Below, one piece after another: positions 3,001 through 46,187 of a stretch of DNA of 64,000 nucleotides (position 1 is its first letter; every line of letters starts with the position of its first letter). A model generated the notes under the pieces. That model was given only the letters and a program-made list of their open reading frames with translations. It was not told where the DNA came from and did no database searches. The stretch lies in assembly GCA_010015585.1 (NCBI GenBank), contig ML975150.1, one strand, 5' to 3'. This stretch comes from Eremomyces bilateralis CBS 781.70. Lineage: Eukaryota. Made by a program: the position numbers and the translations under genes.

Positions 3001-6000
3001 GAGTAGTGGGGGGAGGAGAGAGGGGAGGGAGAGGGGGGATGTGAGGTTTGAGGATGAGAAGGTAAGTCGGAGGGAGGCGAGGCGGAAGGAGAGGGAGCGG
3101 GAGGAGATGGAGACGGAGCGGGAGCAGGAGCGAGATCGAGAGCGACAACGGGAGATGGAGCGGGAACGCGAACGCGAACGAGACCGAGACCGAGAAAGAG
3201 AACGACAACGCCAAGTTATAAAGGAGCAAGAGGAAAGGGAGGAGCGCGAAAGGAGGAGGATGAGGCAGAAAGAAAGAGAGGAGCAGGAGGAACTCGAGAA
3301 CCGGATGCGCCGACGAGAGAAAGAGGAAGAAGAGGCGAAGGAACGAGTACGTGATTCTTCTTCGACGCGTGCCAGAGAGGAAGCGGCGCGCGCACAACAA
3401 GAATACGAAGCTGCCCGAGCCAGACGAGAAGAGATACAGCGCGAATTGTACAGTCGCAAAGACGAGAAAAGCTCCGAACCGAAACCCCACGAAGCGGAGA
3501 TCGATCGCCAGATCGAGCGGAAGCAAATCGAGCTTCGAGGGCGGGAGCAGAAAGCTCTGGGCCATAATCCTGCCGTGCCGATTGCAGCAGCCGCCGTTGC
3601 TGGTGCGGTCGCCGTGGCTGCTGGGACGATGATGTCGCGATCTGAAAGCGATCAGGGGAGTCGGCATGAGAAGGTTGTCGAGCCGAGGGAATTCCGAACG
3701 GTGGCTCCAAAGGAACCGTATCAGGTCGTGGAACCGAAAGAGATCCCAATCGTTGCGCCAGAAGAATCGTATGCTGTGCGCGAGGCGCGCCATGTCACGA
3801 TTGAGCCTTCCCAAGTCGCTATTGACTTCGTTCACGGGGACGCGCTCGCAGACCCCGACTTCTTCAAGAAACGGCGAAAGGCAAAACAGGCGCAGCCGCA
3901 GTCACCTCCAGAGCCTGAAGATAAGGCGAGATCGAAGAAAGAAGCCGAGCTTGCAAGGCGTGCGGCGGATCGAGTTATCGAAGATCTGGAACACAAGTAC
4001 GAAGCTGGACCAGTCAACCAAGCCGATTTCTTCACGCCAGATATCCTCAAAGATCATAGCGCGCCGGCAAGCCCGAGGATTGAACCGAATGCGGACAACG
4101 ATATGACGGTCTACCATGACCCGCACGATGCTGCAATGGCAAGCAGGTCCGTTCCTCCTTATGAGAAGCCATATGCGCTGCATGTGGCTGGGTTGAGCCC
4201 GCATCCTTGGCCGGTGCCGACACTTAAGCTGATTGAGCCTACTCCGCCTCCAAGCCGGGCTACTACTCCCGTTCCATCGGAGCCACCCGGGGCCGCTGAA
4301 ACGACAACTGCCGAACCAACCCCCTCAGCGCCAGCAGTCGCCGAGCCAACGGTCCCCGAGCCAACAACCGCTGAACCCACAACCGCTGAACCCACAACCG
4401 CTGAACCCACAACCGCTGAACCCACAACAGCTGGCGCTGCGGACGAGCGAACCAGGAGTACGGGAAGCAAAGTCACCTGGGGCAAAGATCAGACCCACCA
4501 CTACGAGGTACAGGCGCCTGAGGGTCACCGGGACAGCTACAATGCCGACCCAGATACCAGGGGAGCTCATTATGAGATTGCCGTCGACGTGGATGATCCA
4601 GAGGGTCCGAAGAGGACAACATATAAGCATGAGAACACGGAAGAGCCAGCTTGGGCTGCGTCCCGGGATATCTCACCAATTCGCATCCCATCTCCTGTAC
4701 GCCGCAGCGTCTCACACTCTCCGGTACGAGATACCGAGGGTGACATCACAGATGACCGGCGCGTCGTGAATTCGGATGAGGAACAGGAGAAGGTGTATGA
4801 ATCGCATTCACCACACGTCGAGCCGGTGGTCGTTACGCCTGGTGAACAGGAGGGGGGCTCGTTATATCGAACCCCATTCTATGAGACGGTCACAGACCTT
4901 GGATTTGATGCAGACGAGCCTCCTGGTACTGGACATGGCGCTGTCTTAGGCGAAGTGGAAGAAGAGGAGCCGAGGACACCTAGACGGTCTGCACATTCAG
5001 CCATGCCTGGAGGATTTGACGATGAGGAAGACTCCCCGGTACTCGACCGAGCTCCGGAACCAACACCTCCTCGTGAGAAGAGGTCGAAGAAGTCCAAGTT
5101 CGCCGACATCGCTGCTTCAGCAGCCGCGGGTGCAGCTGCGTCTACGATCGCTCGCGAAATTGGCATGGAAGATGAGCCAACGCGAAATGGGAATCGTAGC
5201 ATCGTCGAAGAAGAACCTCCATCCTCCAAGAAGGGGAAGAAAAAGAAGAAGAAAGGTTCCAGAGCCTTCTCTCCTGAAGCAACCAGTTCTCCTTCTCGGG
5301 CGTCACTGCCCGAGGACATCGATGATGAGCTCGCAACCTCCCGAGATTTCTCCCAGTCCGTGGCTGACTCGGGATATGTCTCCCGGCCAAGTCAGTCCGT
5401 CGCGGATGTAGCCGATGCTCCTCAAGATGCCAGCTTCGCCGACTTTGAGGAGCCGAAGAAAAAGAAGAAGGCAAAGAAGAAGAGCAAGAATCGCGATGAC
5501 GATTTCGAAAGGTCCGTAGAAAGTATTGGCGATGCCAATATTGATCGAGATGAGACACGCAAGATTTTCGAGGAACCGGATTCGTATGCCGAAGAGCGCG
5601 ATCGTGAGAGTTCGAAGTCGCGGAAGTCTCGCCAGGAGGAAGATTCCGAGCACGAAGATCATGAGCGTAGTCGCGAGGCGAAGGCGAGTGCTCGATTCGA
5701 TGATGACAAGAAATCACGCCGGAAGAGTCGAGACAAGTATGACTACGACGAAGATCGATCTTCCAAACGTGCCAGCCGACGGGATTCCGAGAAATATGAA
5801 ACTACTTCTGTCGTCTCAGAGCCTGCCGATTTCTTCGAAACGCCCAAAAAGTCGAAACGGAGGTCCAAAGGCGTTGACGATGATGCTGCCTCTGAGGTTG
5901 GATCGACGGTCTCTTTACCTGCAAAGCCGGGATCTTCCAGCAGCAAGGTCAAGGAAAAGCGATCGGGTATCCTGGGAAACTTGTTCGGGAAAGGCTCATC

Positions 6001-9000
6001 TCAATCTGAAGCGTCAAAAACTTCTACAAGATCTGTGGATGATCATGACGTTGATGAACGACGTGTCAAGAAGAAGCGCTCAGGTTCGACGAAGTACGGC
6101 TCTGATGATGAACCAGATCGACACTCCCATCAATCTGGGGAGAGGAGCGATAAGAAGCGAAGCAAAGACGATCATGGCCTAGAATCTTCATCTCGGCGGT
6201 CAAATGGTGAGTCTCGAGAATCCAAAGAATACGACAGACGGAAACACCGAAGTCGAGACGATCGAAGTAGTAGCAGACATGGAGATTCCGATCAGGAGTC
6301 TTTTTTAGCCGAGCGGGCAGAGATGGGACAGGGTCCTCTGCCCGCTAAGCAACCTGTCGTTACTGATTTTGAGCAATCATCACGATCATTAACAGAGGAC
6401 CTTAGCAGGGAAATAGATCTCGAAGATCTTTCAATAATACCAGCTCCGAGCGATGAACCAGATGTACATGAAGAAGCATCTGTCAGCCCGAAATCGAGTT
6501 CGCCGATGGACTCGATGGAGCGAATCCCTCCCCTTACTTTGCCATCCCAGGAGCGCCCAACGTCCTGGCATGGCATGCAGTTGGATCCGTTTGCTGTGGC
6601 TGCTGCAAACAGAGACGAGGCTGCTTCAAGATCAATCAGCCAACCACCATCTCCCCGCCTCACCAGCACTGACGTTCCATTCGAGCGACTAACTTCCTCT
6701 GAATTCGCGGAAAATTCACCGTCTTCCCCGCTCGAATATCAACGCTCGCAATCCACAACCGCCATCCCCGTACGTTTCAGATGGCAGTCTTCAACGCCTA
6801 CCCTTCAACGGCTCACATCAGTGAGCTCCCCTGTTGAATCGCCCCAATCCCCTTCCCCCACCTCCCGTTTGCGGCACACCAAGACCCATTCCGCAGAATA
6901 TCGGACCAACACTCAAGAAGTGCGGCCACTCTACCTCGTCGAGCGAACTCGCCAGATTCCAGAGGTTGAGGACAGCTATCCAGAACTTCCAGAGAGCGCA
7001 GAAACGTCAAGGAGCCCGTCACTGCAGGATATGGAGGAGTTCGTGTCAGCGGTCCAGTCGCCGGAGCAAAGCTTTGCAGATTTCGCGGATGTGGCGCCTT
7101 TCGATGAGGGTCGCGATTTGTTCGTTGACACTACTCTCGATGACGTTTTAGGATCGCAGGAGGTCACACCAAGAGCTACCACCTTCCCACCGGGTGTTTT
7201 GGATTTGCTTGCAGACAGAGAAGTCGAACTCGACGCGAGCCAGCATCATATCCTAACACAGACTCGCGACTTGGATGAGGGGTTGGAAACAGTGTCGACA
7301 GCTAAACAAATTCCGGAGGCCACGCCAGCTCTTGAACGAGCGAGCGTACGGGACTTGGATATCTCTACGCTACCGGCACTTCCAGTGAGCAGGCCTTCGA
7401 CCCCAGAGCAGCTAGTCAAAAAACCCGGCTACTATTCCCCAAGAGAAATCGTCGAGCCAATTTCTGAGGCCGCGCCGACCCTGGAAGCAGAGGAAGTACA
7501 AGATTTTGATATCTCTACACTACCTGCCCTACCGGAAAGCAGGCCTTCAACTCCTGAGCATCTTGACAAAGTACCTACGGGTCTTTCCCTTGGAGAGTTC
7601 ACCGGAGTAGCGTCGATTGGTGGTGCTGTTGGTCTCGCTGTGCATGAGCTCCTGAAGGATGATCAGAAAGGACCAACTCGCGAAATCACGCAGTCCAAGC
7701 TTCCAGAGACGATTGGACAAGATGCGGGTCATGCTATGCCACCACCTTCTGCCCCAGAGCCCAAAGAAGCCCACCCTGACGACCCGACTGACAAGCCAAT
7801 AGAACGCGCTGTCATTGAAGATGCTGGTTTAGCAGCTACTATCCATGAGCGAGAGGCATCTGAACCGGCATTTGGCAAGCCAGCCTTAATCCAAGAAGAA
7901 CCGGCGACGCCAGTCCCTTTCCTCCTAGCCCGCCGTGAGAGCAAAAAGGCCAAGAAGAAAGACAAGAAGAAAGGAAAGAAAGGCGGCAAGTCGAGCGAGC
8001 CCACTCCGGATGAATCTGTTGCGGATGACGTAGCCGTTGACCAGCACCACGATGTTGAGGAGGCTCCAACTACAAGCCCAGCTGGGGACACCATCGAAAC
8101 TGGACTTGAAGCCAGCTCAGGCGTTCCGAGAGCAGCTGCCGAATTTGCACAGGAACAAGAAGTCGCTGTCCCACAGGCAGATCATCGTATTGATACTCGC
8201 GACGAACTGCCAGCCGCAACCAATGTTGACCAAGATGTGGTAATCGTCCTCGAGGAACCAGCAAAACCGGTGGGGGAATCCATTGGCCAAGTATCTGTGG
8301 CCGAAGGCCCATTTGCACAGCCCTCAGTCATCGATCCGGAGACGGACGACATTGTTGGCGACTGTGGTATAGCTGAGATACACACTGAACATTCCTTGGT
8401 CGCCGACGACATTGCTCTTGCACCACAACCAGTAGAGCATGGAGTTGAAGACAAAGACATGACACAAGATGAGTCTGTTATTGAACCACTGCCTGGGTCA
8501 GAGGAGTCCAAAGAAGCGTTTCCGGCTACTACTGAGGAACCGGAATGGACGGAGACTCTGAAATCAAAGAAAGGTAAGAAAAAGGGAAAGAAAGCAAAGG
8601 GCTGGGCAGCCTTCGATGATGAAGAAACCGAACCCCTTGCCTTCTCCGCCACAGAATCCAACCCCGAACAAGTGGTTGAGGGACCCAATGTCGACGTCCA
8701 ATCAGAGCAGACTGCCCCTATTGCTTTCGTGTCCGGAAAGAAGAGCAAGAAAGTCAAGAAAGCCAAACGTCAATCGACCTTCGAGGAAGCACTCCCTGAT
8801 ACAAGCGGGACTGGTGGTCTAGCGAATTCGCCTGACGAGGATGAAACTTCTCCTATGCCAGAAGATGTACCAGAAGAATCGTTCGAGGTCGCACGTGGAC
8901 CAGAGGAGGAGCCATTTGTCCTGCCCACGGGAAAGAAAAGCAAGAAAGAGAAGAAGAAGTCCAAACGCCATTCGCCTTTCGAGGAAGGAATTCCTGTTCC

Positions 9001-12000
9001 GAGTGGAGCGGACGTTCCAATAGCTGCTCCGGATGCTCACGAGGGTGCTCCTGTGCCAGAAGTAGTTGAGATGTCGAATGAGCCCTTTGAGGTGGAACCA
9101 GAACCAGAAGTCGAACCCTTTGTCCTGTCGACAGGGAAGAAGAGCAAAAAGGACAAGAAGAAGGCCAAACGTCAGTCCACATTCGACGAGGAGCTTCCAG
9201 ACCCTGGGGCTATTGAATCCCGAGCCGCCCCTACTCTGGAGGAAGACGTCGCTGCAGCAGAAGAAGCTGGGCCACTAGAAGTTCCTCCCGCGGTCGAAGT
9301 GAACAAGGAAGAAGGCACCTTCGTCGTACCATCTGGCAAAAAGAGCAAAAAGGACAAGAAAAAGGCCAAACGTCGGCCCACATTTGCTGAGGAGTTTCCT
9401 GATCCTGGTGCTACTGAATTCCGAGCCTCCACTCCTACTCCGGAAGAAACCATCGCAGCCGCAGAAGAAATTGAGCCCTTGGAAGATCCTCCTCCGGCCG
9501 AAGCGAATATGGAAGAAGAGGCCTTCCCCGTCCCATGTGGCAAGAAGAGCAAAAAGGACAAGCAGAAGGCCAAACGCCAGTTCACGTTCGACGAAGAACA
9601 TTTAGATGATGGTACGAGGGATATTCCAGCCACTGTTCCCGGTCTGGAGGAAGAGATCAAAGCCGAGATCCCGGAAGAGCCCCTCGCTGTCGAACTGCGA
9701 GAACAAGAGCCATCAGAAGCGCCTCTCGCGGCCGAAGAGATCAACAAGGAAGTGCCGTCCGTCACCTCATCGGGTAAAAAGAGCAAGAAAGACAAAAAGA
9801 AGGCCAAACGGCAGTCCGTCCTTGACGAAGTGGAGTCAGATGCTGCTGCGAACGAATCTCCAGGCGCCTTTCCTACTCTGAACGAAGAAATCGAAGCTGA
9901 GATTCTTCCAGAGTCTTTCGTCGTTGAACCAGAACAAGAAGAGCCATTCCTTGTGCCATCGGGGAAAAGGTCTAAGAAGGACAAGAAGAAGGCCAAACGC
10001 CAATCCGTACTCGAAGAGCCTACCGAGTCAATCGAACAAGAAGTTCACATTGATGCGCCAATCCCGGGTTTTCCACTTGCAGAGCGTGAACCGTCGATCC
10101 AAGTAGCAGACGATCCTTTGACTTTGACGCCCGACAAGGTCAAACCCCAAACCACATTCGATGAAGGGACCACGGAATCAATCGACCGCGACGTTCCCGT
10201 TCATATCCCAAGTGTGGATTTGCCTCTTGCAGACCACGAGCCGCCGTCAAGCCAACCGCAGGACGATAGTGCCCAACCCCAAGAGGATCCTTTTCTTTGG
10301 ACGTCCAACAAGGAAGCAACATTTGATAAAGAGCTCACGGAGTCAATCGAACGTGACGTTCCCATCGATACCCCTAGTGTGGATTTGCTAGCACCAGAAG
10401 ACGAGCCGTCGGAGCCTCGGGCTATTGACGAACCTGAAGAGGACCCGTTCACTTTCACGTCCAGCAAGAAGAGCAAGAAGGATAAGAAGAAGGCCAAGCG
10501 CCAGTCCGTATTCAATGAGGTTCCTGAGGAGTCAAACGAACGAGAAATTTCTGTCAACTCCTCGAGTGCGGAGCTCCCACCAGCAGAAGTCGAACCGCCG
10601 CAGCAGGAGGAGGTTGAGGGCATCGTTGAACCTGACGAGGATCCTTTCACTTTCACGTCCAGCAAGAAGAGCAAGAAGGATAAGAAGAAGGCCAAGCGCC
10701 AGTCCGTATTCAATGAGGTTCCTGAGGAGTCAAACGAACGAGAAATTTCTGTCAACTCCTCGAGTGCGGAGCTCCCACCAGCAGAAGTCGAACCGCCACA
10801 GCAGGAGGTTGAGGGCATCGTTGAACCTGACGAGGATCCTTTCACTTTCACGTCCAGCAAGAAGAGCAAGAAAGACAAGAAGAAGACTAAGGGTCAATCA
10901 ATCTTTGAGAACACTGTAGACTCATGCACTGAGGACACCCCCATTGAAGTGACTGATTCAGGGCCCGAACCGGTTTCCGCACAGGAATTGGCACCGCTGC
11001 TCCCGACCGGGAAGAAGAGCAAAAAGGATAAGAAGAAATCCAAAGCATGGACTGCATTTGAAGAGACTCCTGAAGCGCCATCTGGAGATGTCTCCGCCAG
11101 CGCTGCAGAGCAAACACTAGCCGTTCAACCTATAGATGATGCGGAAGATCCATTTGTTCCCGCGTCAACAGGAAAGAAGAGCAAGAAGGACAAGAAGAAG
11201 CGTGCCGCTTGGACTGCATGGGAGGATACTGAGCCGGGCCAAGTTGAGCCTGTCGGGGATGTGGCTGCACCCTCCGAAACCGCTTTGGAGGATGCTCCTC
11301 TCGCAGGAACTCCCATCGAGGAATCTCCAAAACTAGACGTTCCTGCTAACACAGAATCTCAACGCGAAGTCCCTGTGGAACAAGACTCAGAAAACCAGAT
11401 AAGGGCTGAAGAGCCTGTTGCTACCACTCCCGACGAGCCTGAGACCTTCGAGCCTGTACGCAAAGGCAAGAAAAAGAAGAGAGAGATAAGAAAAAGCAAG
11501 GCTAAATTTCAAGATGAGCCCTTCATGTCAAATCCCGATGTGGAGGAACAGGTCACGCAGCCAACGGACACAGCAAAAACACTCGAGGAACACGAAAGCG
11601 ACTCAGTCACTTTACCTGAGTGGAACATCAGCCCTCCTGTGGCTGAACTGGATGATGGCCACGTACGGAAGATTCCTCTTCCGCCGGTGACTGAAGACGA
11701 GAATCTCGAGGATGGGGTCGAGCCGGACGACCAACCAATTTCGGATGACATCGACGGACCCTTCGAATCACCGCATGACAAATTATCTCGGGATCTCGAA
11801 CCGATGCAGGACCTCGCGGATATTTCGCAGATCCTCAATAAACCGGAGAGTGCTCAAGCCGAGCAGCATCAGCCCACTTATCTGCCTGAATTCTCTGACA
11901 TGGACTGCGACCTTTTGGGTACCTCTGAAGTTGTGACCGACCCTCATGCTGCAACAGAAGACATTGAAGCTACACAACACCAGGTCCAATCCCCTGTTGA

Positions 12001-15000
12001 GGCCACGATTGTGCCTGGCCACTTACAGGATGTTCATGAGCCACAAGCCGAACATCCAGCCACCCGACTGGAAGAAACAAATGATGTCTCAATTGACGCC
12101 GCCACAGTTCCACTTCTGACTGTAGAGGACGGGGGTCTTGACAAGCCTATCGAAACCGAGCATGCACCTGCTGAGACAGTTCCTGCTGAAGAATTCAATG
12201 TCGTCCAAGATCAGGATATTGCAGAAGCTGTTGAAGAAAAAGGTGTTGAAGCTGAATTGGAACCGGCAGTGGCCTGGACAGCGAAAAAGGACAAGAAGAG
12301 CAAGAAAAAGAAGAAAGGAGCAAAGGCTGCTGAACCTGAACCGAAGGAGCCGGTTACCCTCGCTGATCGGGACATGACCACCGATCAAGGCGTAGAAACC
12401 CTTGAGGCACCAGGGTTACTAGTATCAGACGAAGCCAGACCGAGCCCGGCCGAAGAATCAACTTCTCTTTCTGAACCCACCGAAACCATATTACCCGAGA
12501 CAGCTAATATGCCAATTGAACAGCCTGTCGAGGCCGATGGTAGCGAATGGACGCAACCGATCAAAAAGTCGAAAAAGGACAAGAAGAAGAAACGGAAGGG
12601 TCTCGTCATCGAGGAAGATCAGCCTGCTGGAGCTAAGACTACTCTTCAACCGCAATTGGGCATTTCAACCCAAGCCGACGTTTCTGCCATCGAAGTCAAG
12701 GAGCCGGAGGGGGGCATGGCTATAAGTGATGCGACAGCGGATGATTCTGCTCCCATCGAAGCTACTGAACCGCCGCTCCTTGATTCACAACTCACAGCTG
12801 CAGCAGAGGCCACTGTACCTGGACCTGTGGTCGGGGCTGAACAGGAAGTCATGGACTCCGTTACTTTGGACACGGAAGCGCCTGCTGATGTTGACGAGGA
12901 ATGGAGGGTGCCATCGAAAAAGTCGAAAAAGGACAAGAAAAACAAGCGGAAGAACATTGGCATCGAATCAGAGGCACCCATCCAAACCAAAAACATACCG
13001 CAATCAGAGGAGGGTCCTACTCAAGTTGGAACTTCGGGTACGCAAGAGGAGCCACCACTGGAAACTCCCCCAGGTTCAGATATGATCGAGCCCGTTCTTT
13101 TGGTCGAGGATGCTAAAACTGCCACCAATCCGTTAGATTCCACGTTCGCAGCTGAGCCTCCTGCGCCTAAATCCATGGCTGTTGTGGAGGCTGAATCTGG
13201 AGATTTGCCTACCCCTATTCCAGAGACCCAGGCTGAGGCGGTCGAAGAGGAATGGGCTGTGCCATCGAAGAAGTCAAAGAAGGACAAGAAGAAGCGTAAG
13301 GGCCAGCAGGCAGTTGCTGAGGAATCGCTCGAGCAGTCGAGCACCTCCACCCCCGTGGTATCATCGGCCCCGGATCCTGACTTCACACCCGCGCTCACCA
13401 AAGCGGAAAAGAAGAACAAGAAGAACAAGAAGAAGACTGCTGGATTAGCTTCCTACTTTGACGGGCCTGAAGTTCCAACCCCACCCGCTAAGGATGAAAT
13501 CGTGGACACGAATGTCGTACCAATGGTCGAGGAATTGGCTGCCGTCGATCAACACGGTTCTTCTGAACACCTGACTGCTGAGGTTTCAACCGACGCCAAA
13601 AACGAGGAGCCAGCCAGTTCTGTGCCGGATCGCTCGATTGCAACCACTAAACCTACGCCGGAAGAGGAGGCAGTTGATGACTTCGCAACCCCTCACGAAC
13701 AGCCTAAGGCTTTAAGAACAGAGGAGCCCATCAATCCAGCTTCAGACCGCTCAGTTGAAATTCCTCGGCTCACATTGGTTGAGGAATCCGCCGTCGAAGA
13801 GATGCCAGAGGATTTCGCAACCCCTCTTGACCAGGTCGATGCTCCAGAAGAGTTTTTCCCCGTCACGAAAGGAGAGAAAAAGGGCAAGAAGTCAAAGAAG
13901 CAGCCATTCCTGTTTGAGGATGTAGGTGAATCCGCTGTTGCCGAACCTTCTTCTGTTAGTGAGCCCGTTGAACAGCCCTTCACTGTCACGTCGAGTAAGA
14001 AGGGCAAGAAGAAAGGCAAAAAGGCAAAATCAACAACTCCTTCAGACCTGGCAACCCCAAGGGACGCTTCACCAGAACGTGATACAATGGAAGTACCTGA
14101 AGGTGCTCAGGCTCTGAAATCAACGGATGTGGAGATTAAAGACAGCAGTATGGAAACGCAAGATCGCGCCACTCCCGACAACCAAGCGGCTGAAATGGCA
14201 GAATTTGTGGACGATGGCCCCAACACTGATCTTGTTTCTTCTCTGGAGGTTTCAGAACCGCAGTACGATCGTGATGACCTTGAACGTGGTACTCGCCCGG
14301 AGGAAATCAGTCAACCCCCAGACTTGCCTATCACTGAATTCAATGACGATGCACCCTCATCAATCCCATCGGTTGCGGAATCTCTCTTTGGGCAACCTAC
14401 TTCGATGGAGCGAAGTTCATATTTCCCGGAATTGCCGCAAGAATCGAGTACCGCCTATCACGTACCACAGACTGCTGAGAGAGATGTCGATTTCGCTGCG
14501 GCTGCAACTGCAGGCCTAGTCAGCGCAGGATTCTCGGCTACGCTAGCCGAATCTGCCTTCAACGATGATGATGTCCATCAATCTGGTCCACGCAAAGCTG
14601 GATCTGAAAGGGGGGTCCTCGAAGACCACATTTCAAGCAAAGCTACTACTACTCCAGGCCCCTCACCCGCACTTAAGGCGGAGAGTAATACATTCAGCCC
14701 GGAAGCTGTACTCGATGACCCTGTCTTCTCTCGTTCACATAGCCCGCAAGAAGCGTTGGATACTACGGACGACCTCCCTCCTATTCTTCAACGGCCAAGG
14801 AAGAAGCGCAGCTCGGGTTCTCGTTCACCACCTGGAAGTCCTCCACCTTCTGCTGTTGAGCGTGCCGTCACCGAGGATGCTCCTCCTGCAGAAGCATTAG
14901 CTGAGGCGGCAATATCAGATTTGGAGGAAGAATTCCCCGTGACAAAGACGAAGAAGAAGAAAGGCAAGAAAGGCAAGAAGGCGAAGCAGGCTTCTATGGC

Positions 15001-18000
15001 TGCAGAGACAAACACTACGCAAGAAGCAGCTGCAATTGAACCGGAGGATCGGGCAGTCCTAGCTGATAATTCGGTCGGAGATCTTCACGACCCCTCTACC
15101 TCTCAGAAATATGAACTCGAGAATCCGGTGGAGGTATCAAATCAGGAACTGGAGAAGACGACTGCAACGACACACGACCCCCCTTCTACGCCTCGGGATA
15201 TCGAGTCCTCATCTACGCCAACGGGGCGGCGAATAAAACCAATGCGCAAGCCAAGCACGAAAGGCAAGAAGGGAAAGAGAGGCAGCACACTGCCGTGGGA
15301 GGAGCAAGAGGAGCGATCGGGAACTCGAGGCGAGATTAGCGGAGCATTGGGAGCAGGGTTGGGAATTGCATCTGCAACCGCACTGAAGGGCATGGCAAGG
15401 AAAAGTCAAGATAGTTCAACCCAAGACCAGGAGAACGAGGAGCTCGGTGAACATGGCATCGAGACGAGAGATTTTGCTGCAGCCATAGATTCCCCGCAGC
15501 GGCAATCACCTTCCGCCGCAGGAGCACGACAGACAAGCGTTGTTTCATCGGTATCCCCTAACCTTGAAAGGGTCAAGCGGAAAGCCGCGGCAAATACAGC
15601 TGAGCCTCCATCGAAGGCCCATCACATATGGGATATTCGCGACTACGTTCAGGAACCAACATGGGCATCCCCACAAGAGCATCGTGACAGTGCTGTCCAC
15701 ATTGGCGGGTCACCCCAGACAAAGAGCCTGCCATTGATGCCGGATACAACGAGAGACAGTGGCTATCACGATACACCGATTCTTCTGCCACCTGAGCACC
15801 ATGCACCCAGGAGTGTAGATACTCACGAGAGCACTCCGCCCCTATCCAGCAACATGCCTAGCTCGAAGGAGCAGCTTCAGGGTTCTGACGAAGTTGGATC
15901 GGATTGGGAAGTCTCGGCTCATCCAACACTAGTTGATGAATTGCAAAGAGACATGGTACCTCCCCGCAGCCGTCCGGTATCCCTCGCGGAGGGTACTGCT
16001 CCCCCTTCTACCTTCACATCACCAATGGATGCTACCACGAAGGCTAGAACTTCGTACCTTTTCAGCTCCTCTCCTTCGATCAGAGATACTCCTATACGCC
16101 GACCAAGGACGCCGGATGAGTCAAGACAAGCTATCCCAGATGAGGATCTGACACCATCCATTGCTGGTAGAACTCCAACCAGTCCTTCTGATACCGGAGC
16201 CTTGTCAATGGCACCCCGTGGTTCAGGCGATCAATCAAGCCCGTCTCCTTTCGGTACTGGATCAAGCATGCGATCGCTTGGAAGAGACTCAACGATGACT
16301 CCATCAAGGAACCTTGCAACGATCGAGGAGCAGGGCTCTGAGCCGGGTTCGTCTCCATTGAGCCACAAGGCCCAACGCACATCTCCTCCAGAGGCCAGTC
16401 TTCATCACCGATTCCGATCTCTATCACCACCCGAACATGCAAGTCCTGATCATGAACATAGAGATTCCGCTGGTCTTGACCATGTCTTGGCTCAATCCCC
16501 TCGTTCGCCTCACACTCTTGATCTCCCAGCAGACTCGGCTCGTTCTTTAGGATCCCCGTCACTACAATCTCCAAGGGATCTTCGATCACCTCCTCCAAGC
16601 AGCGAGAGATCCATAGCCGTCAATCGACTTCGTAGTCCTTTACATTCAGGAACAAGAACCCCTGACTCCGCAGGACAACGACGACCGTTGAGTGCAATGA
16701 GCGCTCACAGCCACCACAGCCACGGCTCCAACCAATCACTTAGGCGCACGGACCGCAGTTTGTCAGGTGATCTCCGAATCGCCAGCCGCCTTAGTGAAAC
16801 CCAAGAACCTGGCGCGACAAGAGGTTCAACACCTGCACCCATTCACTCCGCGCCGTTGTCGCTTTTGGGCATCGCGGCGCAGGATCAGGATTCGCCTCGT
16901 AACATTTCACCTCCAGGATTTGGCGAAGCCGGTCCGTCCGATTATGACAAGTTCAGTGAAGTGAGCGACAAGGGCAAGAATCGCGCTGTTGCCAACGCGA
17001 TGGGTGATGTTTTCGTGAGTATAGCTCTCTCCTACCACCATAATGCTTCCATCTTCGGATATGCTCGGGGATGATGCAACTTATCTAGCAACTGAGTTGA
17101 TAGCTGACATTGCTCGCTCTACAGGAAGGCTATGGCGAGGCCCCAAGGTCGCCAATGTCACCGACTGGTCGTGCACCGACCCTCCGAAAACGACAATCCC
17201 TTCTCATTACAGACCTACAATCACAACTTGACCGAGTGGCCGCCGAAAATCGAAACTTACAAGATGCCCAACTCCGAGCCGAACACGGCATTGAGGAGGC
17301 TCGAGCGGAAGCTGAAGCTGGGGCCGCCGCCATTGCGCGGGTGAAAGAGGCGGTAACAGAGAGGGAAATACAGTTAAGGTCAAAAGAGGAGGAGCTGGTC
17401 GATCTTAGGTCGATGGTGGATGAGTTCAAGGAGGAAGTGGAAAGGCTCACAGGAGACAATGAGGACTTGGCCATTGCAAACAGAAATCTTGCGGAGGATG
17501 TCAATGGTCGCTATGCGACTCTCCAGGAAGAGACCAGACAGAAGGACATGGAAATCAGGAAGATCAGGTCGGAGCATGCGGAGCTTACGGCAGGGATGGC
17601 GTTGGTTGTTCGACAACAGATCGACTCGGCCTTGGAGCAAAAGGACCAACAACTGGCAGAAGTGCAGGCGGAACTGGATCAAGCAAGGGAACAAGTCAGA
17701 CAACTTCAACACCAGTTGCTCAACTCGACTCAAACAGAAGACTTCCTCAAGGTCCGAGATGATGATTACTTCGACATGGCTTGTCAGCAGCTCTGCGACC
17801 ATGTCCGATCATGGGTGATGAGGTTCTCGAAGAACTCTGATACAAGACAATGCAGGTTAACATCGGATCTACGCGACGAACGGCTCGAGACAAGAGTCGA
17901 CAATGCCGTTCTCGATGGATCCGATGTCGACATCTTGCTCGCAGATCGGGTCAAGAGGCGAGACGTCTTCATGAGCGTTGTGATGAGCATGATTTGGGAG

Positions 18001-29980: not shown

Positions 29981-32568
29981 TCATCGAACAAACTTGCCTC
30001 CACAATAGACGCATGCGTCAAACGCTGCAAAAATAACCTCCGCTAGAGTTCCTTGTTTTCTCGGGATGTCAGTCATGTTTCCGCCTGTGTCCTTCGATGC
30101 TTCACCGTCCTCCCTACCCGTGTTACTGGCATTATTGCCAGCAGGTTCTTCTGTAATCAACTGCGAATCGTCGCCGATAACGAAGCTCTCGGCCAAATAC
30201 TGCAAACCACAAATACTGCAGTTTTTCGAGATTCCTGGAGCTTGGATCGACAGGAATGTAAGCGCACAGCGAGCGAACTTGTGGCCCCGTGCGCATTTCG
30301 ACCAGTCTAAATCTTCGAACACGATGCGGTAATTGCAGATGTCACAGAGCTCCGAGAACTCATGCACACTCGGTTGCATAGTGCTGGGCTCGCTGTCTTC
30401 CTTATCCTGCTCGGCTTGAAGTTTGGCTTGAGCTGCCGCATATGATGCGACGATCCTCGTGCTGTTGACGCTCATTTGGGACAAAATTGAAGGTAAATCC
30501 AAAACTTCTCGAATGACTAATTTAGCAATAGCCTTGTCTATCGTCGTTCTAATCCACTTCTTTTTCACAGCTTGCGTGGAGAGAAGGTTGTCAAACTGCT
30601 TGAGGCACAATTGATGTGAGAAACGACTTAGTGCTGCGACAAGATGGTGAGGTTGATCTGATGTAATTGATGAACTGCTATATGTCAGTCCCACCATTCA
30701 ATTAAACCTGTTCATAGGAACTTACAGTCCTCTTCCTAGAATGGGGTCACAAGGCTGGCTGTTCTCAATAGTTTCTCTTAGTCCCTTTTCAATAGTAGCT
30801 TTGAAGGTTTTGTCATGTTTGGTAACAATGCCGCCCGTCCACCAGGCCTTGATCGTGAACAGTATACATTCAGAGCTAATCCCTATGAGAAAGTTAGTTT
30901 GCACGATCATTTGAAAGCGTCGACACTCACGTCCACTGTACATCTCTGGAGAATACGTAGGGATCTCGCCGGATGGGAAGTCCTTATGGAGATTTATCAT
31001 AGTCTCCTCCTGGGCATGGATAGTATACTCTAGCACTTTCGCGGGATGTAAGGAGACGGCAGTAGCTTGGAAATCGCCCAGCGGTGACGAAACCATATCC
31101 CAAACTTTTGCACAGCTATTCTCACCGAGGTCGGTTTTTTCTGCATAGAAGGTGCGCATCTCCGCAATTGTCTTTTGCCATTCAGGGGTTCCAATTTCGT
31201 TATCTGTATTTAGGAGCGGCATCGGGAATTTGGTGCATTGTCCTGAATCGAGCAAGGTTGGTAGGTGAACATAGCTGCGGCCATCTGAGGACTTGCTAAA
31301 CGCGATGCCTAGACGTTTATTAACCAAAGCACGATGTACAGGGTGGCATATGGAATACGTACCAGAGACTATGTTCCACATAGTATGGAGATCATACCTT
31401 GAGAAAACCGGCGCGTCACCATCTCCAGTATCGCAAAGAGACACCACCTGATCGCCATTTGGTGACGTTTCGCGGAGGCAAAAGACAAGATATCTGATTT
31501 CATCCTCAGAACGAGACTGCCACCATGCCATTGGTCCGACGCCTCCGAACTCTTGAACAGGATAGTGAATGTCATGCGGTCCAAATCCGACGTGCAGTTC
31601 ACTATCGTTTCTTGATAAGCGGAGTTTCTTGATATGCACTCCCTCAACGCTCGAGAATGCCAAGGAGGCCTCGATGAAGCCCTGTTTAGGGGCACTCCAA
31701 TCACTGATTGTGAGATTCGTTACATATGGACGATTCTGAGTGTAGTCCTCGAACAAGAGGTTCTTCTGTGTTGATTCGATATTGGAAGCCACCGAGAAAT
31801 GGTGAAGGATTGTCGTGATCCATGTCGGTTCACCAGACTTGATATCGTGAATAGCCTGCACCCGAGCGACAATCACCTCTAGATTCTCATTTGAAAGAAC
31901 AAGCAGGTTCTCGCCCCAAGAGGTATCATTTGAGATAGTCGAGGGGTCATAGGTCCGGGTCAATGGTAGATATGCCGGTTTGCACCAGGTAAAGGAGCGG
32001 ATCCGTTGTCGCTTGAAAGCGAGTTCAAACTTGATTCTCTCGTGAGACGAGAATGATTCTCGCGAAGGTGAGCGCGGGAAGTAGTTCTTCAATGCATGGT
32101 TGACGACGACCATCCGCTTCCAGTTTGAAGCGTTGTTGCGCGAGCCAGTGGACGCCCAAATGGAAAGAACCTGGTTTGAAGTCAAAACCGCGAGCACGCT
32201 TCGCCTGTACTGTCCGAGCCCGAGAGGCGACCATTCCGTCCGTAATGCATGGCAATCAGATATCTCTTCCCCGATGGACCAGTTCTGAAAGCTGAGCGGC
32301 TCCTGAATGGGCACTTCCGATTCCCGGAACTGGTTGGTGCGAATGACCAAGTTCTGCCAGAGGGGGTCATGGACTCCAGGGACCGGTTGATTTGACGACC
32401 TCAAATTGGGTATCTATTCTCATTAGAATATGAATCAATAATATCGGGTGCAAGGCGTACTAATAACTGGACATTTTCTCCTGCTGTGACCGCAAGCTCA
32501 CCGTCGTTTGACCAGCTCAGACACCTAGTCGTGCCAGGCGCGGCGTTGAGTACGGCAAGCTGGGCCAT
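29981..32568 (-). CDS. RNA polymerase III transcription factor TFIIIC delta/90-kDa-type subunit with C-terminal zinc finger; multi-exon
   Basis: Exon 1 reads MAQLAVLNAAPGTTRCLSWSNDGELAV, followed by WSPLGLG..RSVLAVLTSN. C-terminal CDIC..C.RGH.F.RC..TF....PG.SK.C..CG..CVYCGGKF (zf-TFIIIC). Introns include 31309-31362 and 30883-30930. Confidence 0.85.
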
Positions 32569-32865: not shown

Positions 32866-34711
32866 ACGTAATCCACCAGCGAGTCGCCCAAACCACCGAG
32901 TCGCCCACCTCATCTCCATAACAGCGATCATCACGGTTTTTTCGCAATGTCTCAACAACAGCGCCCTCAATTACCTTCAAATGAAGCTAGAATGAACCTA
33001 GCCATCCAGACTATCGAACAAGACCAAGTTCAATCAATTCGAGAAGCTGCAAAAGCTTACAACGTCCCGTGGAGTACCTTACGTGACCGCCGCAACGGAA
33101 TGACTGCACGAAGCGATTGTGTCCCGAATTCGAAAAAGCTCTCAAATATGGAAGAAAGGGTGATTATCGACTACTGCCTCGATGTCGACGCGCGCGGATT
33201 TCAGCTCAATTACGATATGTTGCGAGATATAGCCAACAAGCTACTCAGCGATCGCGGTCAGGCTCACGTTGGTATCAATTGGCCGTCAAGATTCGTACAA
33301 CGCGTTCCAGAGCTCAAAACACGTGTTAATCGAAAGTACGACTATAAAAGAGCCCTGAACGAAGATCCAGAGATTATTGGCGCGTGGTTTCGCCTCGTAC
33401 GCAACGTGAAGGCAAAATACGGTATCCTGGATGAAGATACATACAACTTTGATGAAGTTGGCTTTCAAATGGGCGTAATCGGGACGCGCATGGTCATCAC
33501 GGGTACCGAACGACGTCAGACTCCAAAAACCTTGCAGCCAGGCAATACAGAATGGGTGACATCGATCATTGCTGCCAGCGCGCAAGGTTGGGTTGTCCCA
33601 CCCTTCATCATCTTCAAAGGCGCTCGACATTACAATACCTCGTACGAGGCGATTGCGGATAGGCCTGATTGGGTTCTATCAGTTAGCGAGAAGGGCTGGA
33701 CGTCCCTTGAGCATGGATTTGAGTGGTTAAAGCATTTTAATCGCTTCACAGAAGACCGTACGACTGGCGCCTATCGGCTTCTGATTATGGATGGCCATAA
33801 CAACCATGACACTATCCAATTCCAGGATTTCTGCAAGGACCAGAAGATCATTACTCTCTGCATGCCTTCGCATTCATCTCATTTGCTACAACCCCTCGAC
33901 GTTGGCTGTTTTGGGCCATTAAAGCGCGCGTATAGCAAGGAGATTGAGGACTTTATCCGGTGCCGCATCAACCACATCACGAAAGAGGACTTTTTACCTG
34001 CTTTCAAGACCGCCTTCGAAAAAGCAATTGCTACGGAGAATATCCAGGGCGCCTTCAGAGGCGCAGGATTAATGCCTTTCGATCCAGAAGCTGTTATTTC
34101 AAAGCTTGATGTCCGATTACGGACCCCGACGCCATTACCAGAGACCACTCAATGGGAGTCGCAAACACCACGCAACGTCGCTGAAATAGGGTCCCAAACA
34201 GAGTACATACGACAGCGCCTTCAAAGAGATCAAAATACCTCCCCAACACCGCTTTTAGAAAGCTTTTCAAGCCTTGAAAAGGGTGTTCAAATGGTCGCGC
34301 ACGGAGCTTCAATCATGGAGGTCGAGATAGGAAAGCTTCGGAAGGCAAACGAGACGCTATCAAAGCGCAAACAACGCAAAAAAAAGGTGCTTAAGGGCGC
34401 TGACACGCGCTCAATTACTGATGGGCTTCAATTAGTTGAACAACGCCGGGATCAAGATATAATCAGTCAAAATGGTGCTTCTAGTGACGCTCCTGGAAGG
34501 CGCCAGCGACGTTGCGGACGCTGTCGCGAGCCAGGACATCGAGTTGAGACCTGTTCAATGCCTCAATTAGCTATAACAGAAAACGTAGATCCTAGCCTAC
34601 TTCCTAATTAATAAATTGCTTCAGTAGTTGTTGAGATATTCAGGTTACGGTAGTGGGCCACGGTTGAGGTGGGCGACTCGGTGGTTTGGGCGACTCGCTG
34701 GTGGATTACGT
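32866..34711 (+). mobile_element. Complete Fot1/pogo-family (Tc1/mariner superfamily) DNA transposon
   Basis: Perfect 47-bp TIRs (32866-32912 and 34665-34711, ACGTAATCCACCAGCGAGTCGCCC...), TA target duplication on both sides, and an internal transposase ORF. Confidence 0.96.
32947..34611 (+). CDS. Fot1/pogo transposase (psq-type HTH, CENP-B HTH, DDE_1 with DD35D, C-terminal CCHC knuckle), 554 aa
   Basis: NFDEVGF, LIMDGHNNH and QPLDVGCF, with 35 residues between D2 and D3. C-terminal RRCGRCREPGHRVETC. ORF is uninterrupted. Confidence 0.95.
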   Translation: MSQQQRPQLPSNEARMNLAIQTIEQDQVQSIREAAKAYNVPWSTLRDRRNGMTARSDCVPNSKKLSNMEERVIIDYCLDVDARGFQLNYDMLRDIANKLLSDRGQAHVGINWPSRFVQRVPELKTRVNRKYDYKRALNEDPEIIGAWFRLVRNVKAKYGILDEDTYNFDEVGFQMGVIGTRMVITGTERRQTPKTLQPGNTEWVTSIIAASAQGWVVPPFIIFKGARHYNTSYEAIADRPDWVLSVSEKGWTSLEHGFEWLKHFNRFTEDRTTGAYRLLIMDGHNNHDTIQFQDFCKDQKIITLCMPSHSSHLLQPLDVGCFGPLKRAYSKEIEDFIRCRINHITKEDFLPAFKTAFEKAIATENIQGAFRGAGLMPFDPEAVISKLDVRLRTPTPLPETTQWESQTPRNVAEIGSQTEYIRQRLQRDQNTSPTPLLESFSSLEKGVQMVAHGASIMEVEIGKLRKANETLSKRKQRKKKVLKGADTRSITDGLQLVEQRRDQDIISQNGASSDAPGRRQRRCGRCREPGHRVETCSMPQLAITENVDPSLLPN

Positions 34712-42329: not shown

Positions 42330-43406
42330 CTATCCAAACGCCTTCGTCAACATTTGCTGCGCCAACTCTACCCCTAAGAACGTCGCTGCATTCGCCGGCA
42401 CCGCCCTCGCGATCGCCGGCCCGAACCCAGGGAAGAACGCCTTCACCCCTCCCTTCCCATACAGCTCTCGGATCGTCCCCGAAATCGTCGGCCGTCCCTC
42501 TGCGCTCTGCAGCCGACTCTTGATCGTATCCACGGGGAACACCGGGATCCACATCGCCACACCGGCCGCTCCGCCCGCCGCGCACACCGCCGTCAAGCTC
42601 AACTCCCCGGGATTCCCGTTCGCGTCCTTCGGCGTCAACCGCCGCTTGATATACTCGTACGAGGCGAAATACGCTGCGCTGCCGGGCCCGTCGCGCGCGA
42701 GGGTCATGGCGCTCCCGCGGAACACGCTGCGGACGCCACCCTCCTTGTACAGCTGGCGGACGACGTCGAGGCCGCCGGCGTATTTAGGCTTCTCGCCGGG
42801 GGCGAGGGTTTTCTGGCCTTGGATCTGGAGGAGGACCTTGACGCGCTCGAAGGGGGCAGTGATAAGGGTCATGGGCATGGCGGAGAAAAAGCCGGCGGCG
42901 GAGATTTGGGCGATAGAGAATTGGTTGTTTTCGACGGTGGAGAATGAGCGGACGAGTTGTTTGCCGACGTCGTAACCCCAGAAGCTGACGGCGACTGGGA
43001 GGGTTAGTTGAGGGAGTGTGAATTAGGAAGAAGGAGACGTACACATGGGCGTTACGCCGACGAGAGGTGCGGAAACACCTGCATAGAGCCCCTATCTCAG
43101 ATCAGCGTCTTGTTTGATACCATCCGATGTTCATGAACGGCTTACTCTCGCCAACCCTTCCCTTGCAATCGTCTTCCTCACGACATCGATCGCCCCGCTA
43201 TACACGCCCTTGTCCGCCGTCTGCATGCGCACCTTCACCAGATCGAACGGATGGCCCACTACCACGGCACAAAGACCGCCAACCCCGCCCGCGGCGAAGG
43301 CCCGTAGGCTCTGGAACGAATTCTTGGTCGCGACGACGACATCTTCCTTCAGCTCTTCCTTGGACGGCAGGGCGTCGGACTTGGGGAGGGAGGGAGTGGA
43401 CGGCAT
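42330..43406 (-). CDS. CRC1: Mitochondrial carnitine/acylcarnitine carrier (CRC1/AcuH-like); multi-exon
   Basis: Three MCF signatures (HPFDLVKVRMQ, APFERVKVLLQ, FPVDTIKSRLQ), plus RDGPGSAAYF and RAVPANAATF. Confidence 0.9.
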
Positions 43407-44370
43407 GGTAACCGTGGGAGGAGAGGGAGAGCGGGGAGAGTCGGAGGTGTGCTCTGCGGAATGTTTTCGCGGGGTCTTCTGGCTATCGGTACCGGAGCAG
43501 AGGGGAGAGGCGATGGGAAGATGGGGGGTGGTCGCGAGGGGTCAATTGAGTCGGACTATGGACAAGAAGGTGAGGTTCAGGTGTAGAAGAAGACGATATC
43601 ACATTGACGATGCAAAAATTCTAGCTATCCCACGACGGCATCGGCGATATCCTGGCATATCCGGAACTAATCGAGGCGTTCGGGAGTACAGACCCTGAGC
43701 GCCCTGGGATTCCCTGAAAGTCTAAGGAGGCTGGGGTTGGTTTTGCCGAAACTCGAAGCTGCTGTGGTTGGCTGGGAAGCATATGGAGAGGTCACGTGCG
43801 CATCTCACCTTTGACCTTTCCCTCGGCAAGGCAAAGATCCTCCCATCGGAATCCATCCGCCGAGTTTCTTTCTCCAGTTCCCCAGTTCTCACGTCACCCG
43901 TATCTCCAATTTTCGGTCAAATGGACATGGCCGATTGGAGGAATTCTGATAACTATCATGCGAGACCCGGTTTTCCTGTTCATGCGGATATGCTTGGTAT
44001 TCCTCTGTCGGGATTCGGGAACCCGTGATGCCGTGTCATCTCACTCAACAGCTGGTTACTATCCATTATTATATGGTACCGACATCATCGATATCTCGTC
44101 CAAGTTCCATTCCAGCAGCTTCAAATTCCGCCAATGTTAATGGTTTGAATATCAATGGCTAGGTTTAGCCTATCGAACGGTCTGAGTTCATGTCTTCAAA
44201 GTTCCTACAGTCAACTGCATTCACCTCCTTCAGTCTGTCATTCAGTGTCATATACATTTCATTGCAGTCATATCTTTCAAATCGGGTTGATATATTAAAA
44301 TTTTAATTGCTATTTTCTTTTGTAAATTCAGGTTCCGTCCGCGACACTCTCACCGACGACGCAATCCTAG

Positions 44371-44947
44371 AGCTCATCTTAGCTACAGTCCCTCTCTAGT
44401 TTCCATTCATAGGAAACAAAGAGGGCTATTACTAGATCCAGGCACTGCGTTGAGCAGCGAGTTATTTTCCTGGGTATACAGGCCACCGCTATGTCAATCG
44501 CCCGGCGCATAGCACGGTGAACATAGCGGAGTGGCCTTGGTGAGGCTCATCTTAGCTTCATTCCTCTATTTCAGGGAACTACTAGGACCTGGGCATCAAC
44601 CATAAGGTGTGAGCTCTTCACCGGGGTATATATGCCACTCTTCCGCTGTGTTGATCGCCCGGCGCGTGCTACCGCGGCACGGTGATCTAGCATAGCCTAC
44701 AACTTATCTTAGCTTTGTCCCCCTATTTCAGGAAAGTACTAGACCCAGACACCACGTTGAGGTGTAAGCTTTCAACCTGGGTTGGGCCGCACCTCCAAGG
44801 ATCGTGCAGAGGGCTGGCGGCGAACCAGCAGCAGGCTCCAGGACGATCCTGGTGGAGTGACTCCAAGAGCTTGTCTTTGCTTCTTTCCTCTAACGAGGGG
44901 GTACTAGACCCGAACACCACGTTGAGGTGCAAGCTCGTCGTTCGGGG
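44371..44947 (+). repeat. Four diverged tandem units (157-173 nt period) with a conserved predicted pseudoknot fold; candidate structured RNA
   Basis: Units start at 44371, 44544, 44701 and 44868. Shared elements are RRCTYRTCTT(A/T)GCT, TACTAG, CC.G..CA...GTTGA and GYRAGYT. Compensatory substitutions occur in two crossing helices. Confidence 0.7.
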
Positions 44948-45530
44948 AATACTGTCAGTACGAGGTAATTCCCAGGGAATTCTCTGCTTCGTTGCGCATT
45001 GTCCTAGGACTTGTGTCCTGGTTAGTGCCTGGAGAAGAAGTAAGCTCGAGAGATGTGTTTTCATTGTTCCCAATAAAGCCATTGTCCGGCCCTACCAAGT
45101 TTGCCCACGTCCAAAATTTCATTGTTCTAATTCATTCCATTTGTGTAATCACAATATTTCTGTCTTATTGGCATCCAATCTAATAATCCGAGGAGATATT
45201 GATGTGCCGGAAATGGAAAGTCAATTCGAGATTCCAATTCTTTATTGACGGACCATTCCAGCAACAACGGATGCGGAATCGTTCGCAACAAAGACAGACT
45301 CTCATGACCTCCCACCCTCCCACCCTCCCACCGAAGTTAGAATGCCTGGAAGTGGAAATGCTCTTCCTCGCCACAGAAACAGGAAAAGCAAACTTAGAGG
45401 ACCGCCAGAATATTCTCACGGTCATTCCACAGCCACTTAGGGCTCATCTCATCATCCCCTCCGTTTATATCATAAGAAAATCCCCTCCCAAGTCGGATTC
45501 TTGAGTCCCTTCACAATCAACATCACCAAC

Positions 45531-46187
45531 ATGTCCGGCACAACAAGACCGAACGTGGCCGAAGTCCAGGGTCGCCTTATTGTCGAGAGGTCCAGGCGGG
45601 AGACAGCCGAGAGTAGGCTCGTCATCGCCGCGCGAGAAATCGCGAACCTCCTCGCACAGCGAGACGAAGCCCAGGGCGTCATCACCGGGTACATGGACGA
45701 CCTCTTTACCGAACAGAGGGCCACGCACGCGCTCTCCCGTGCCGCCGACCAGATCCAGCAGCAATATGACGAAAAATGCCAGGAGATCCGAGAGATGAAG
45801 GCCAGGTTACCGCCGAAGACGCCGTGGTGGGAGGAACGCGAGGACTGGATCATCGAGGAGGATCAGTTTGGAATACGGCATTTTGTGAGGACGGAGCAGG
45901 TTGAGGGTGTGGGGGAGGTTCAGTTGAAGGATGCGGTGCCGAAGGGTTATGTGAATGCGAAGAAGACGGTCAGGATCAATGCGTCGGATCATCATGGGAG
46001 AGAGGAGAAAGGAGCCTTGCCGTATGAAGAGTGGTTGGCGGCAGAGGACGAAACCGAGGATAAAAAGACCAAGCCTAAAAATCCTAAGCCTAAAGCGAAG
46101 AGTCCCCAGCCTAAAACGTCCGGGAAGCCCAAAGCGCAAAATACAGCGCCTAAAGGGCCCGAGAAGCGTCGATCCTTCTTTAACTAA
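45531..46187 (+). CDS. Orphan protein with N-terminal coiled coil and Lys/Pro-rich basic tail
   Basis: ATG in CAACATG context, coding-like codon usage and a heptad-like helix. No known family recognised. Confidence 0.6.
   Translation: MSGTTRPNVAEVQGRLIVERSRRETAESRLVIAAREIANLLAQRDEAQGVITGYMDDLFTEQRATHALSRAADQIQQQYDEKCQEIREMKARLPPKTPWWEEREDWIIEEDQFGIRHFVRTEQVEGVGEVQLKDAVPKGYVNAKKTVRINASDHHGREEKGALPYEEWLAAEDETEDKKTKPKNPKPKAKSPQPKTSGKPKAQNTAPKGPEKRRSFFN

Follow-up and report, generated by a model that had tools for sequence, protein, structure and literature searches.

In the 64-kb stretch of DNA analyzed here (the window), a gap of approximately 2 kb between a minus-strand mitochondrial-carrier (Mito_carr) gene and a plus-strand ORF starting at 45531 was found to contain four diverged head-to-tail units (u1–u4), all on the minus strand and located within positions 44371–44947 (Table 1). 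The nearest atlas clusters of the carrier protein were mostly from Ascomycota, and the plus-strand ORF showed no Pfam family. A perfect octamer repeat, CCTCCCAC in 3.1 copies (45308–45332), precedes the plus-strand ORF by approximately 200 nt and u4, in the minus sense, by approximately 360 nt; it may be part of a divergent promoter shared by the two.

Elsewhere in the window, a 579-aa ORF (32872–34608, plus strand) contained DDE_1 endonuclease and HTH_psq domains, suggesting a pogo/Tc5-like DNA transposase, and this was the only transposon-type gene among the ORFs scanned. Of the 51 ORFs of at least 180 aa in the window, 22 large ones were scanned, with no reverse transcriptase detected, and a tRNA scan gave no hits. 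A plus-strand open frame of 5,690 codons (2–17071) runs off the left end of the window; S, E, A, and P together make up 41% of its product, which contains almost no C or W. Neither half of this frame showed a Pfam match at E 1e-5, and it looks like a giant protein gene with a probably disordered product. Two adjacent minus-strand ORFs (29984–32413), one with a TFIIIC_delta beta-propeller and one with a zf-TFIIIC domain, probably represent exons of a single TFIIIC subunit gene.

The array is contained in a single 9,995-nt contig from run X1, the kind of which was guessed. This contig covers 43145–46500 without any differences and skips 43091–43144 (GT..AG, minus strand) in the carrier gene, which shows that it derives from spliced RNA. 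A second short carrier intron was placed at approximately 42975–43042 (minus strand) from a loose end of the contig that matched the next exon. The contig merges several genes and carries no information on strand, ends or level. Since it bridges both of the cuts predicted below, uncut RNA, antisense RNA or carried-over DNA must exist.

The four units were used to build a covariance model (R1), which matched 44371–44478, 44544–44630, 44701–44785, and 44868–44950 in the window, all on the minus strand, with 72.9–94.3 bits (u1 72.9, u2 85.8, u3 94.3, and u4 89.3 bits), scores that are self-referential since the model was trained on these units themselves. A fifth copy was absent from the 64-kb window, the remaining seven of the 11 matches listed having scores of at most 10 bits. 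The motif pair CTAGTA...GCWAAGA occurred four times in the window, in the array only and on the minus strand only, compared to a mean of 0.01 in 100 shuffled sequences, none of which contained four. Pairwise identity among the units was 63–73%, and Tandem Repeats Finder missed the array owing to this divergence. The distance between predicted cuts was approximately 152–165 nt, with one ribozyme in each unit. Among the blocks formed by a ribozyme and its spacer, u3 with SP2 and u2 with SP1 were the most similar pair, which points to multiplication of a ribozyme-plus-hairpin block by tandem duplication. In the alignment, SP1 and SP2 had two sequence blocks in common that were not present in SP3.

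A pattern scan of metagenomes gave one locus, which was rejected as a chance match in a prokaryote-like coding region; it showed no P1 pairing and scored 4.4 bits with R1. The same pattern had no matches in prokaryotic genome contigs or in viral contigs, a result made little informative by the strictness of the pattern.

Table 1. Positions of the array units, their predicted elements, the spacers and the neighboring carrier gene (folding energies in kcal/mol).
Feature	Position	Strand	Description
u4	44867–44946	minus	Predicted ribozyme, all elements kept; sequence, pairs, RF02682, R1, descriptor start 44946
u4 P1	44946–44940 / 44915–44909	minus	7 Watson-Crick pairs, C-G at cut
u4 P2	44936–44930 / 44873–44867	minus	7 bp
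u4 extra C between P2 and P3	44929	minus	
u4 P3	44928–44926 / 44918–44916	minus	
u4 L3 UCAACGU	44925–44919	minus	
u4 J1/4 plus AGUA	44908–44902	minus	
u4 distal P4	44898–44887	minus	
u4 GAA	44883–44881	minus	
u4 J4/2	44879–44874	minus	Putative catalytic C at 44879
u4 predicted cut	between 44947 and 44946	minus	
u3	44701–44781	minus	Predicted ribozyme, all elements kept; sequence, pairs, RF02682, R1, descriptor start 44781
u3 P1	44781–44775 / 44750–44744	minus	5 Watson-Crick and 2 G-U pairs
u3 P2	44770–44765 / 44706–44701	minus	6 bp, 1 G-U
u3 extra C between P2 and P3	44764	minus	
u3 P3	44763–44761 / 44753–44751	minus	
u3 L3 UCAACGU	44760–44754	minus	
u3 J1/4 plus AGUA	44743–44737	minus	
u3 P4	44735–44718	minus	
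u3 J4/2	44712–44707	minus	Putative catalytic C at 44712
u3 predicted cut	between 44782 and 44781	minus	
u2	44544–44625	minus	Degenerate
u1	44371–44474	minus	Degenerate
SP3	44783–44865	minus	Hairpin; minus -37.1, z -2.0; plus -40.6, z -3.1; 3 G-U per strand
SP2	44629–44699	minus	Plus -29.4, z -2.98; minus -20.6, z +0.25
SP1	44481–44536	minus	Hairpin; minus -28.3, z -3.3; plus -32.2, z -4.13
Leader upstream of u4	44948–45040	minus	Minus -21.4, z -1.15; plus -29.0; overall weak structure
Mito_carr gene exons	42333–43022, 43134–43541	minus	Mitochondrial carrier

Unit structure and relation to HDV ribozymes

On the minus strand, each unit showed the order P1-P2-P3/L3-P1′-J1/4-P4-J4/2-P2′. The initial annotation had described four modules on the opposite strand, with two crossing helices X and Y in each. 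Its helix Y corresponds to P1 and its helix X to P2 of the minus strand, where its "CGTTGA" hairpin is P3 with L3 UCAACGU, its "TACTAG" hairpin is P4, following J1/4 (U/C)CUAGUA, and its "ATCTTAGC" is J4/2 GCUAAGAU, with a cytosine at what is, by sequence, the putative place of the catalytic C. All eight helices described were found in the sequence, and since X crosses Y the pseudoknot is real. The initial annotation was right in recognizing, on the minus strand, HDV-like nesting and motifs resembling L3 and J4/2; L3 UCAACG, CUAGUA, and GC(U/A)AAGA follow each other there in HDV order.

Units u4 and u3 appear to be intact, and u2 and u1 appear to be decayed copies without features needed for catalysis. 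P2, the extra C, P3 (ACC/GGU), CUAGUA, GAA, and GCUAAGA (C at 44555) are retained in u2, which has UUAU plus a 5-nt insert instead of the L3 motif and a P1 (44625–44621 / 44592–44588) with an internal C-A, its best P1 register being off by one. In u1, the position of the cut-site pair is C-A (44474 with 44437), P1 is reduced to 5 bp (44473–44469 / 44442–44438), and the register of P3 is shifted, which leaves a 5-nt L3. This unit has GUA in place of GAA and a long and regular P4 of about 45 nt, and GCUAAGA is retained (C at 44382).

No Rfam match was found in the window at the gathering thresholds, and at lax thresholds weak minus-strand matches to RF02682 (HDV-F-prausnitzii, drz-Fpra type) were found for u4 (44946..44875, 19.6 bits, E 0.051 with 96 nt searched) and u3 (44781..44700, 18.2 bits, E 1 with 901 nt searched) only. 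Both scores fall well short of the gathering score (44), and both matches span positions 1–74 of the 74 model positions, beginning at the first P1 base. The lax scan gave no HDV match for u1 and u2; on the plus strand there was no HDV match, the only Rfam match being a chance-level miRNA hairpin. Canonical HDV and CPEB3 families showed no match at E up to 10. The similarity to RF02682 concerns the P3/L3 core CACCUCnACGUGGUG common to u3 and u4 and J4/2 GCUAAGAU in u3, whereas this family is bacterial, its P1 and P2 sequences differ, and its J4/2 is out of register on u4. A structure-only HDV descriptor gave 53 start sites on the two strands of the window together, among them minus-strand starts at 44946 and 44781. 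The descriptor is unspecific and HDV topology by itself is not rare; the identification draws jointly on the core motifs, which are strand-specific, on the Rfam alignments and on three published features, not on topology alone.

These features are those of a fungal variant of HDV ribozymes. Li and Breaker (2017; BMC Genomics 18:785, PMC5640933) reported 230 "HDV ribozyme variants" from 26 fungal species, the hosts including Ajellomyces, Arthroderma, and Aspergillus species, i.e., ascomycete molds, and cleavage was demonstrated for two constructs, from P. chrysogenum and A. niger. According to the text of that paper, three features set the variants apart from the general HDV consensus: the pair at the cleavage site is C-G, part of P4 gives way to a loop E motif, and an additional nucleotide, in most cases C, stands between P2 and P3. 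Rfam has no separate model for these variants. In our alignment, the cut-site pair (columns 7 and 45) was C-G in u2, u3, and u4 and C-A in u1, and the extra nucleotide (column 24) was C in all four units. AGUA, located between J1/4 and P4, was likewise invariant in the four units and faced GAA (u4 and u2), AAA (u3) or GUA (u1). We take AGUA/GAA to be the loop E consensus of the fungal variants. Units u3 and u4 thus appear to combine the cut-site C-G, a loop-E-like AGUA facing GAA or AAA, and the extra C, and their putative membership in the variant class rests on these three text-stated features plus the core motifs.

The rejection of an HDV ribozyme in the initial annotation for want of G+1 could not be upheld, as the published description of the fungal variant lists C-G at the cut among its features. 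The missing CC/GG P1.1, the other objection, was confirmed as an observation: J1/4 starts with UC and L3 positions 2–3 are CA, which allows at most one A-U pair between L3 and J1/4 and no two-pair G-C P1.1. The text of PMC5640933 offers no explanation for this absence. We consider it likely that the units add new members to a known ribozyme class, the fungal "loop E" HDV variant, that the minus strand encodes them, and that two of the copies are intact and two decayed. The initial suspicion of an array of ribozymes is in line with this result; the suggestion of an undescribed class or a regulatory leader is not, given the published variant, and the ribozymes lie on the strand opposite to the helices drawn. 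No description of arrayed or tandem fungal HDV variants was found in full-text literature searches, and neither "tandem" nor "array" appears in the text of PMC5640933, the alignments of which may contain such loci. The tandem layout with hairpin spacers appears to be undescribed.

Pairing, covariation and strand preference

Alignment of the units with MAFFT (A1) gave 22 pairs in four units, i.e., 88 cells, of which 80.7% were standard pairs compared to 28.4–50.6% in six slid controls. Six of the 22 pairs were changed on both sides, compared to one or two in the slid controls, and both P1 and P2 contained double changes. The initial claim of covariation with pairing kept above background is thereby supported, all of this covariation being between four paralogs of one locus. 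Among 500 column shuffles, 18 reached the covariation score and 44 reached the paired percentage, which with four sequences is a weak control.

On the minus strand, the 22 pairs of u4 were 20 Watson-Crick and two C-A, the latter in the part of P4 proximal to loop E. Unit u3 showed 16 Watson-Crick and six G-U pairs and no C-A, so that only 16 of its 22 pairs are standard on the plus strand. In u2, 17 of 22 pairs were standard (15 Watson-Crick, two G-U; besides, four C-A and one other), and in u1 12 of 22 (11 Watson-Crick, one G-U; besides, four C-A and six other, some of which reflect the MAFFT register). According to the initial annotation, plus-strand G-U accounts for most wobbles. This applies to helices defined on that strand and is an artifact of the definition; on the minus strand, G-U was found in nine cells vs. 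C-A in 10 over the four units, and in six vs. none in u3.

The two halves of the array were observed to differ in this respect. In the left half (44371–44700; u1, SP1, u2, and SP2), the non-Watson-Crick cells correspond to plus-strand G-U, and the right half (u3, SP3, and u4) was minus-favoring or neutral. The left half may have acquired this pattern through decay under a transition bias affecting one strand, or it may be constrained on the plus strand. At positions identical in u3 and u4, the changes in u1 and u2 were directed 12 vs. 4 towards plus-strand G/U; a RIP-like one-strand transition bias is a candidate cause of this drift, which comprises 16 changes. Among the spacers, SP2 forms a clear hairpin on the plus strand only, where its three G-U pairs correspond to C-A on the minus strand. 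The spacers were also considered as snoRNAs, a reading discarded since no C/D boxes and no clear ACA box were seen by eye.

Three other explanations of the array were considered. The functional RNA could be the plus strand, acting as a structured leader or regulatory array for the gene at 45531, with the HDV likeness of the minus strand being a relic or a coincidence. The array lies upstream of that plus-strand gene, all three spacers (SP3, SP2, and SP1) are more stable on the plus strand by both energy and z-score, the four minus-strand C-A cells in each of u1 and u2 are G-U on the plus strand, and the 12 vs. 4 drift has the same direction. This explanation is nevertheless highly improbable: the conserved unpaired motifs are sensible only as an HDV core on the minus strand, which also carries both Rfam HDV matches, whereas on the plus strand u3 would have six A-C mismatches and no Rfam family was found beyond the chance-level miRNA hairpin. 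In addition, the folding z-score of the whole array was lower on the minus strand (-4.86) than on the plus strand (-3.40). That the array is a decaying duplication without function, with four relics and a residual shape in u3 and u4, agrees with the clear degeneration of two of the four units, but we regard it as very unlikely, since u3 and u4, although different at 26 of the 81 positions aligned, still form 22 of 22 and 20 of 22 pairs, respectively, with double changes in P1 and P2 and invariant core motifs.

A retrozyme-like repeat, the monomers of which (approximately 150–165 nt) would be cut out, possibly circularized, and copied back by a reverse transcriptase from another locus, would account for the head-to-tail units, for their spacing of approximately 152–165 nt from cut to cut, and for the presence of a ribozyme in each. 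Retrozyme repeats are many and near-identical. Here, only four copies with 63–73% identity and largely unrelated spacers were found, none further in the 64-kb window; two of these are decayed, no reverse transcriptase was detected in the 22 large ORFs scanned, and the DDE_1 transposase was the sole transposon gene seen. Cleavage would yield the 5′-OH and 2′,3′-cyclic phosphate ends described in the text of PMC5640933, and the texts of PMC6765202 and PMC7761336 report HDV-like ribozymes to be common at the 5′ ends of non-LTR retroelements and hammerhead retrozymes to be tandem. On balance, we find a retrozyme-like origin quite unlikely, and prefer the assignment to the fungal HDV variant.

Proposed processing of the minus-strand transcript

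Under the preferred assignment, the minus strand would be transcribed from right to left, starting from the region shared with the divergent gene, and each intact ribozyme would fold into a nested double pseudoknot on the transcript. The J4/2 cytosine of u4 and of u3 would then aid the attack of the 2′-OH of the -1 nucleotide on the phosphate 5′ of the first P1 base. Such chemistry, with a J4/2 cytosine, is established for HDV. For two other members of the fungal variant, HDV-type cleavage chemistry was demonstrated, according to the text of PMC5640933. Cuts would be made co-transcriptionally at 44947/44946 and 44782/44781, leaving a 2′,3′-cyclic phosphate on the upstream product and a 5′-OH on the downstream product, and all RNA downstream of the cuts would be uncapped. 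A 165-nt RNA (44946 to 44782) consisting of ribozyme u4 and hairpin SP3 would be freed, the predicted fold of which contained the P2, P3, and P4 elements plus the SP3 hairpin. SP3 begins 2 nt past the P2 3′ strand of u4 and stops 1 nt short of the cut predicted for u3, and a 5-bp hairpin in the leader (44961–44949) ends 2 nt before the cut of u4. The gap-filling hairpins would probably serve as folding insulators between neighboring ribozymes and would provide a closed stem at the new 3′ ends.

The most likely purpose of the array is processing or 3′-end definition of a non-coding divergent transcript, followed in second place by a relic of a small ribozyme-bearing repeat. It is unlikely that the array is a working processing cassette producing RNAs of approximately 165 nt with a ribozyme body, a 3′ hairpin, and 5′-OH and 2′,3′-cyclic phosphate ends. 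If it were, the products might be stable small RNAs, or circles joined by the fungal tRNA ligase; retrozyme or circRNA loci would then have in this array their first HDV-type counterpart, and the orphan fungal variants a first functional context.

The fungal HDV variants were presented in 2017 with proof of cleavage, and the text of PMC5640933 assigns no biological role to them. The present locus offers a concrete and testable arrangement, with two intact and two decayed copies and gap-filling hairpins that end beside the cut. The candidate roles are 3′-end definition behind a hairpin, release of a small ribozyme-hairpin RNA, or a ribozyme-bearing repeat. For annotation, the locus illustrates that a missing G+1 does not exclude an HDV-class ribozyme in fungi, and that the two-pair G-C P1.1 cannot be drawn in the array units either.

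Comparison with known ribozyme systems

In canonical HDV ribozymes, a G-U (purine-pyrimidine) pair is present at the cut and a two-pair G-C P1.1 is formed between L3 and J1/4. The array units resemble canonical HDV and CPEB3 ribozymes in helix order, in a 7-bp P1, a 3-bp P3 and a 7-nt L3, and in the J4/2 cytosine preceding the 3′ strand of P2; they differ in the lack of the cut-site G-U and of the G-C P1.1, in the putative loop E within P4, and in the extra nucleotide between P2 and P3. As in the HDV-like ribozymes of R2 and L1Tc described in the texts of PMC6765202 and PMC3185411, the released RNA would start with the ribozyme, which would sever it from the upstream transcript. Unlike in these retroelements, no ORF or reverse transcriptase follows downstream, the released RNA comprising only the ribozyme and a hairpin.

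With the hammerhead retrozymes and satellites treated in the texts of PMC7761336 and PMC6765202, the array has in common a tandem head-to-tail arrangement of units that measure one to a few hundred nt and carry a predicted or known self-cleaving ribozyme apiece. It differs from them in the class of ribozyme and, in the 64-kb window, in having four copies at 63–73% identity instead of many near-identical tandem ones. Closest are the fungal HDV variants, with which the units share the nested double pseudoknot, the cut-site C-G, the extra C, an ascomycete host and an intergenic location, along with a putative loop-E-like AGUA/GAA at the site of the proximal P4. The text of PMC5640933 describes those variants as single motifs with "widely variable gene associations", whereas the locus analyzed here contains four head-to-tail copies, two of them decayed, separated by hairpin spacers.
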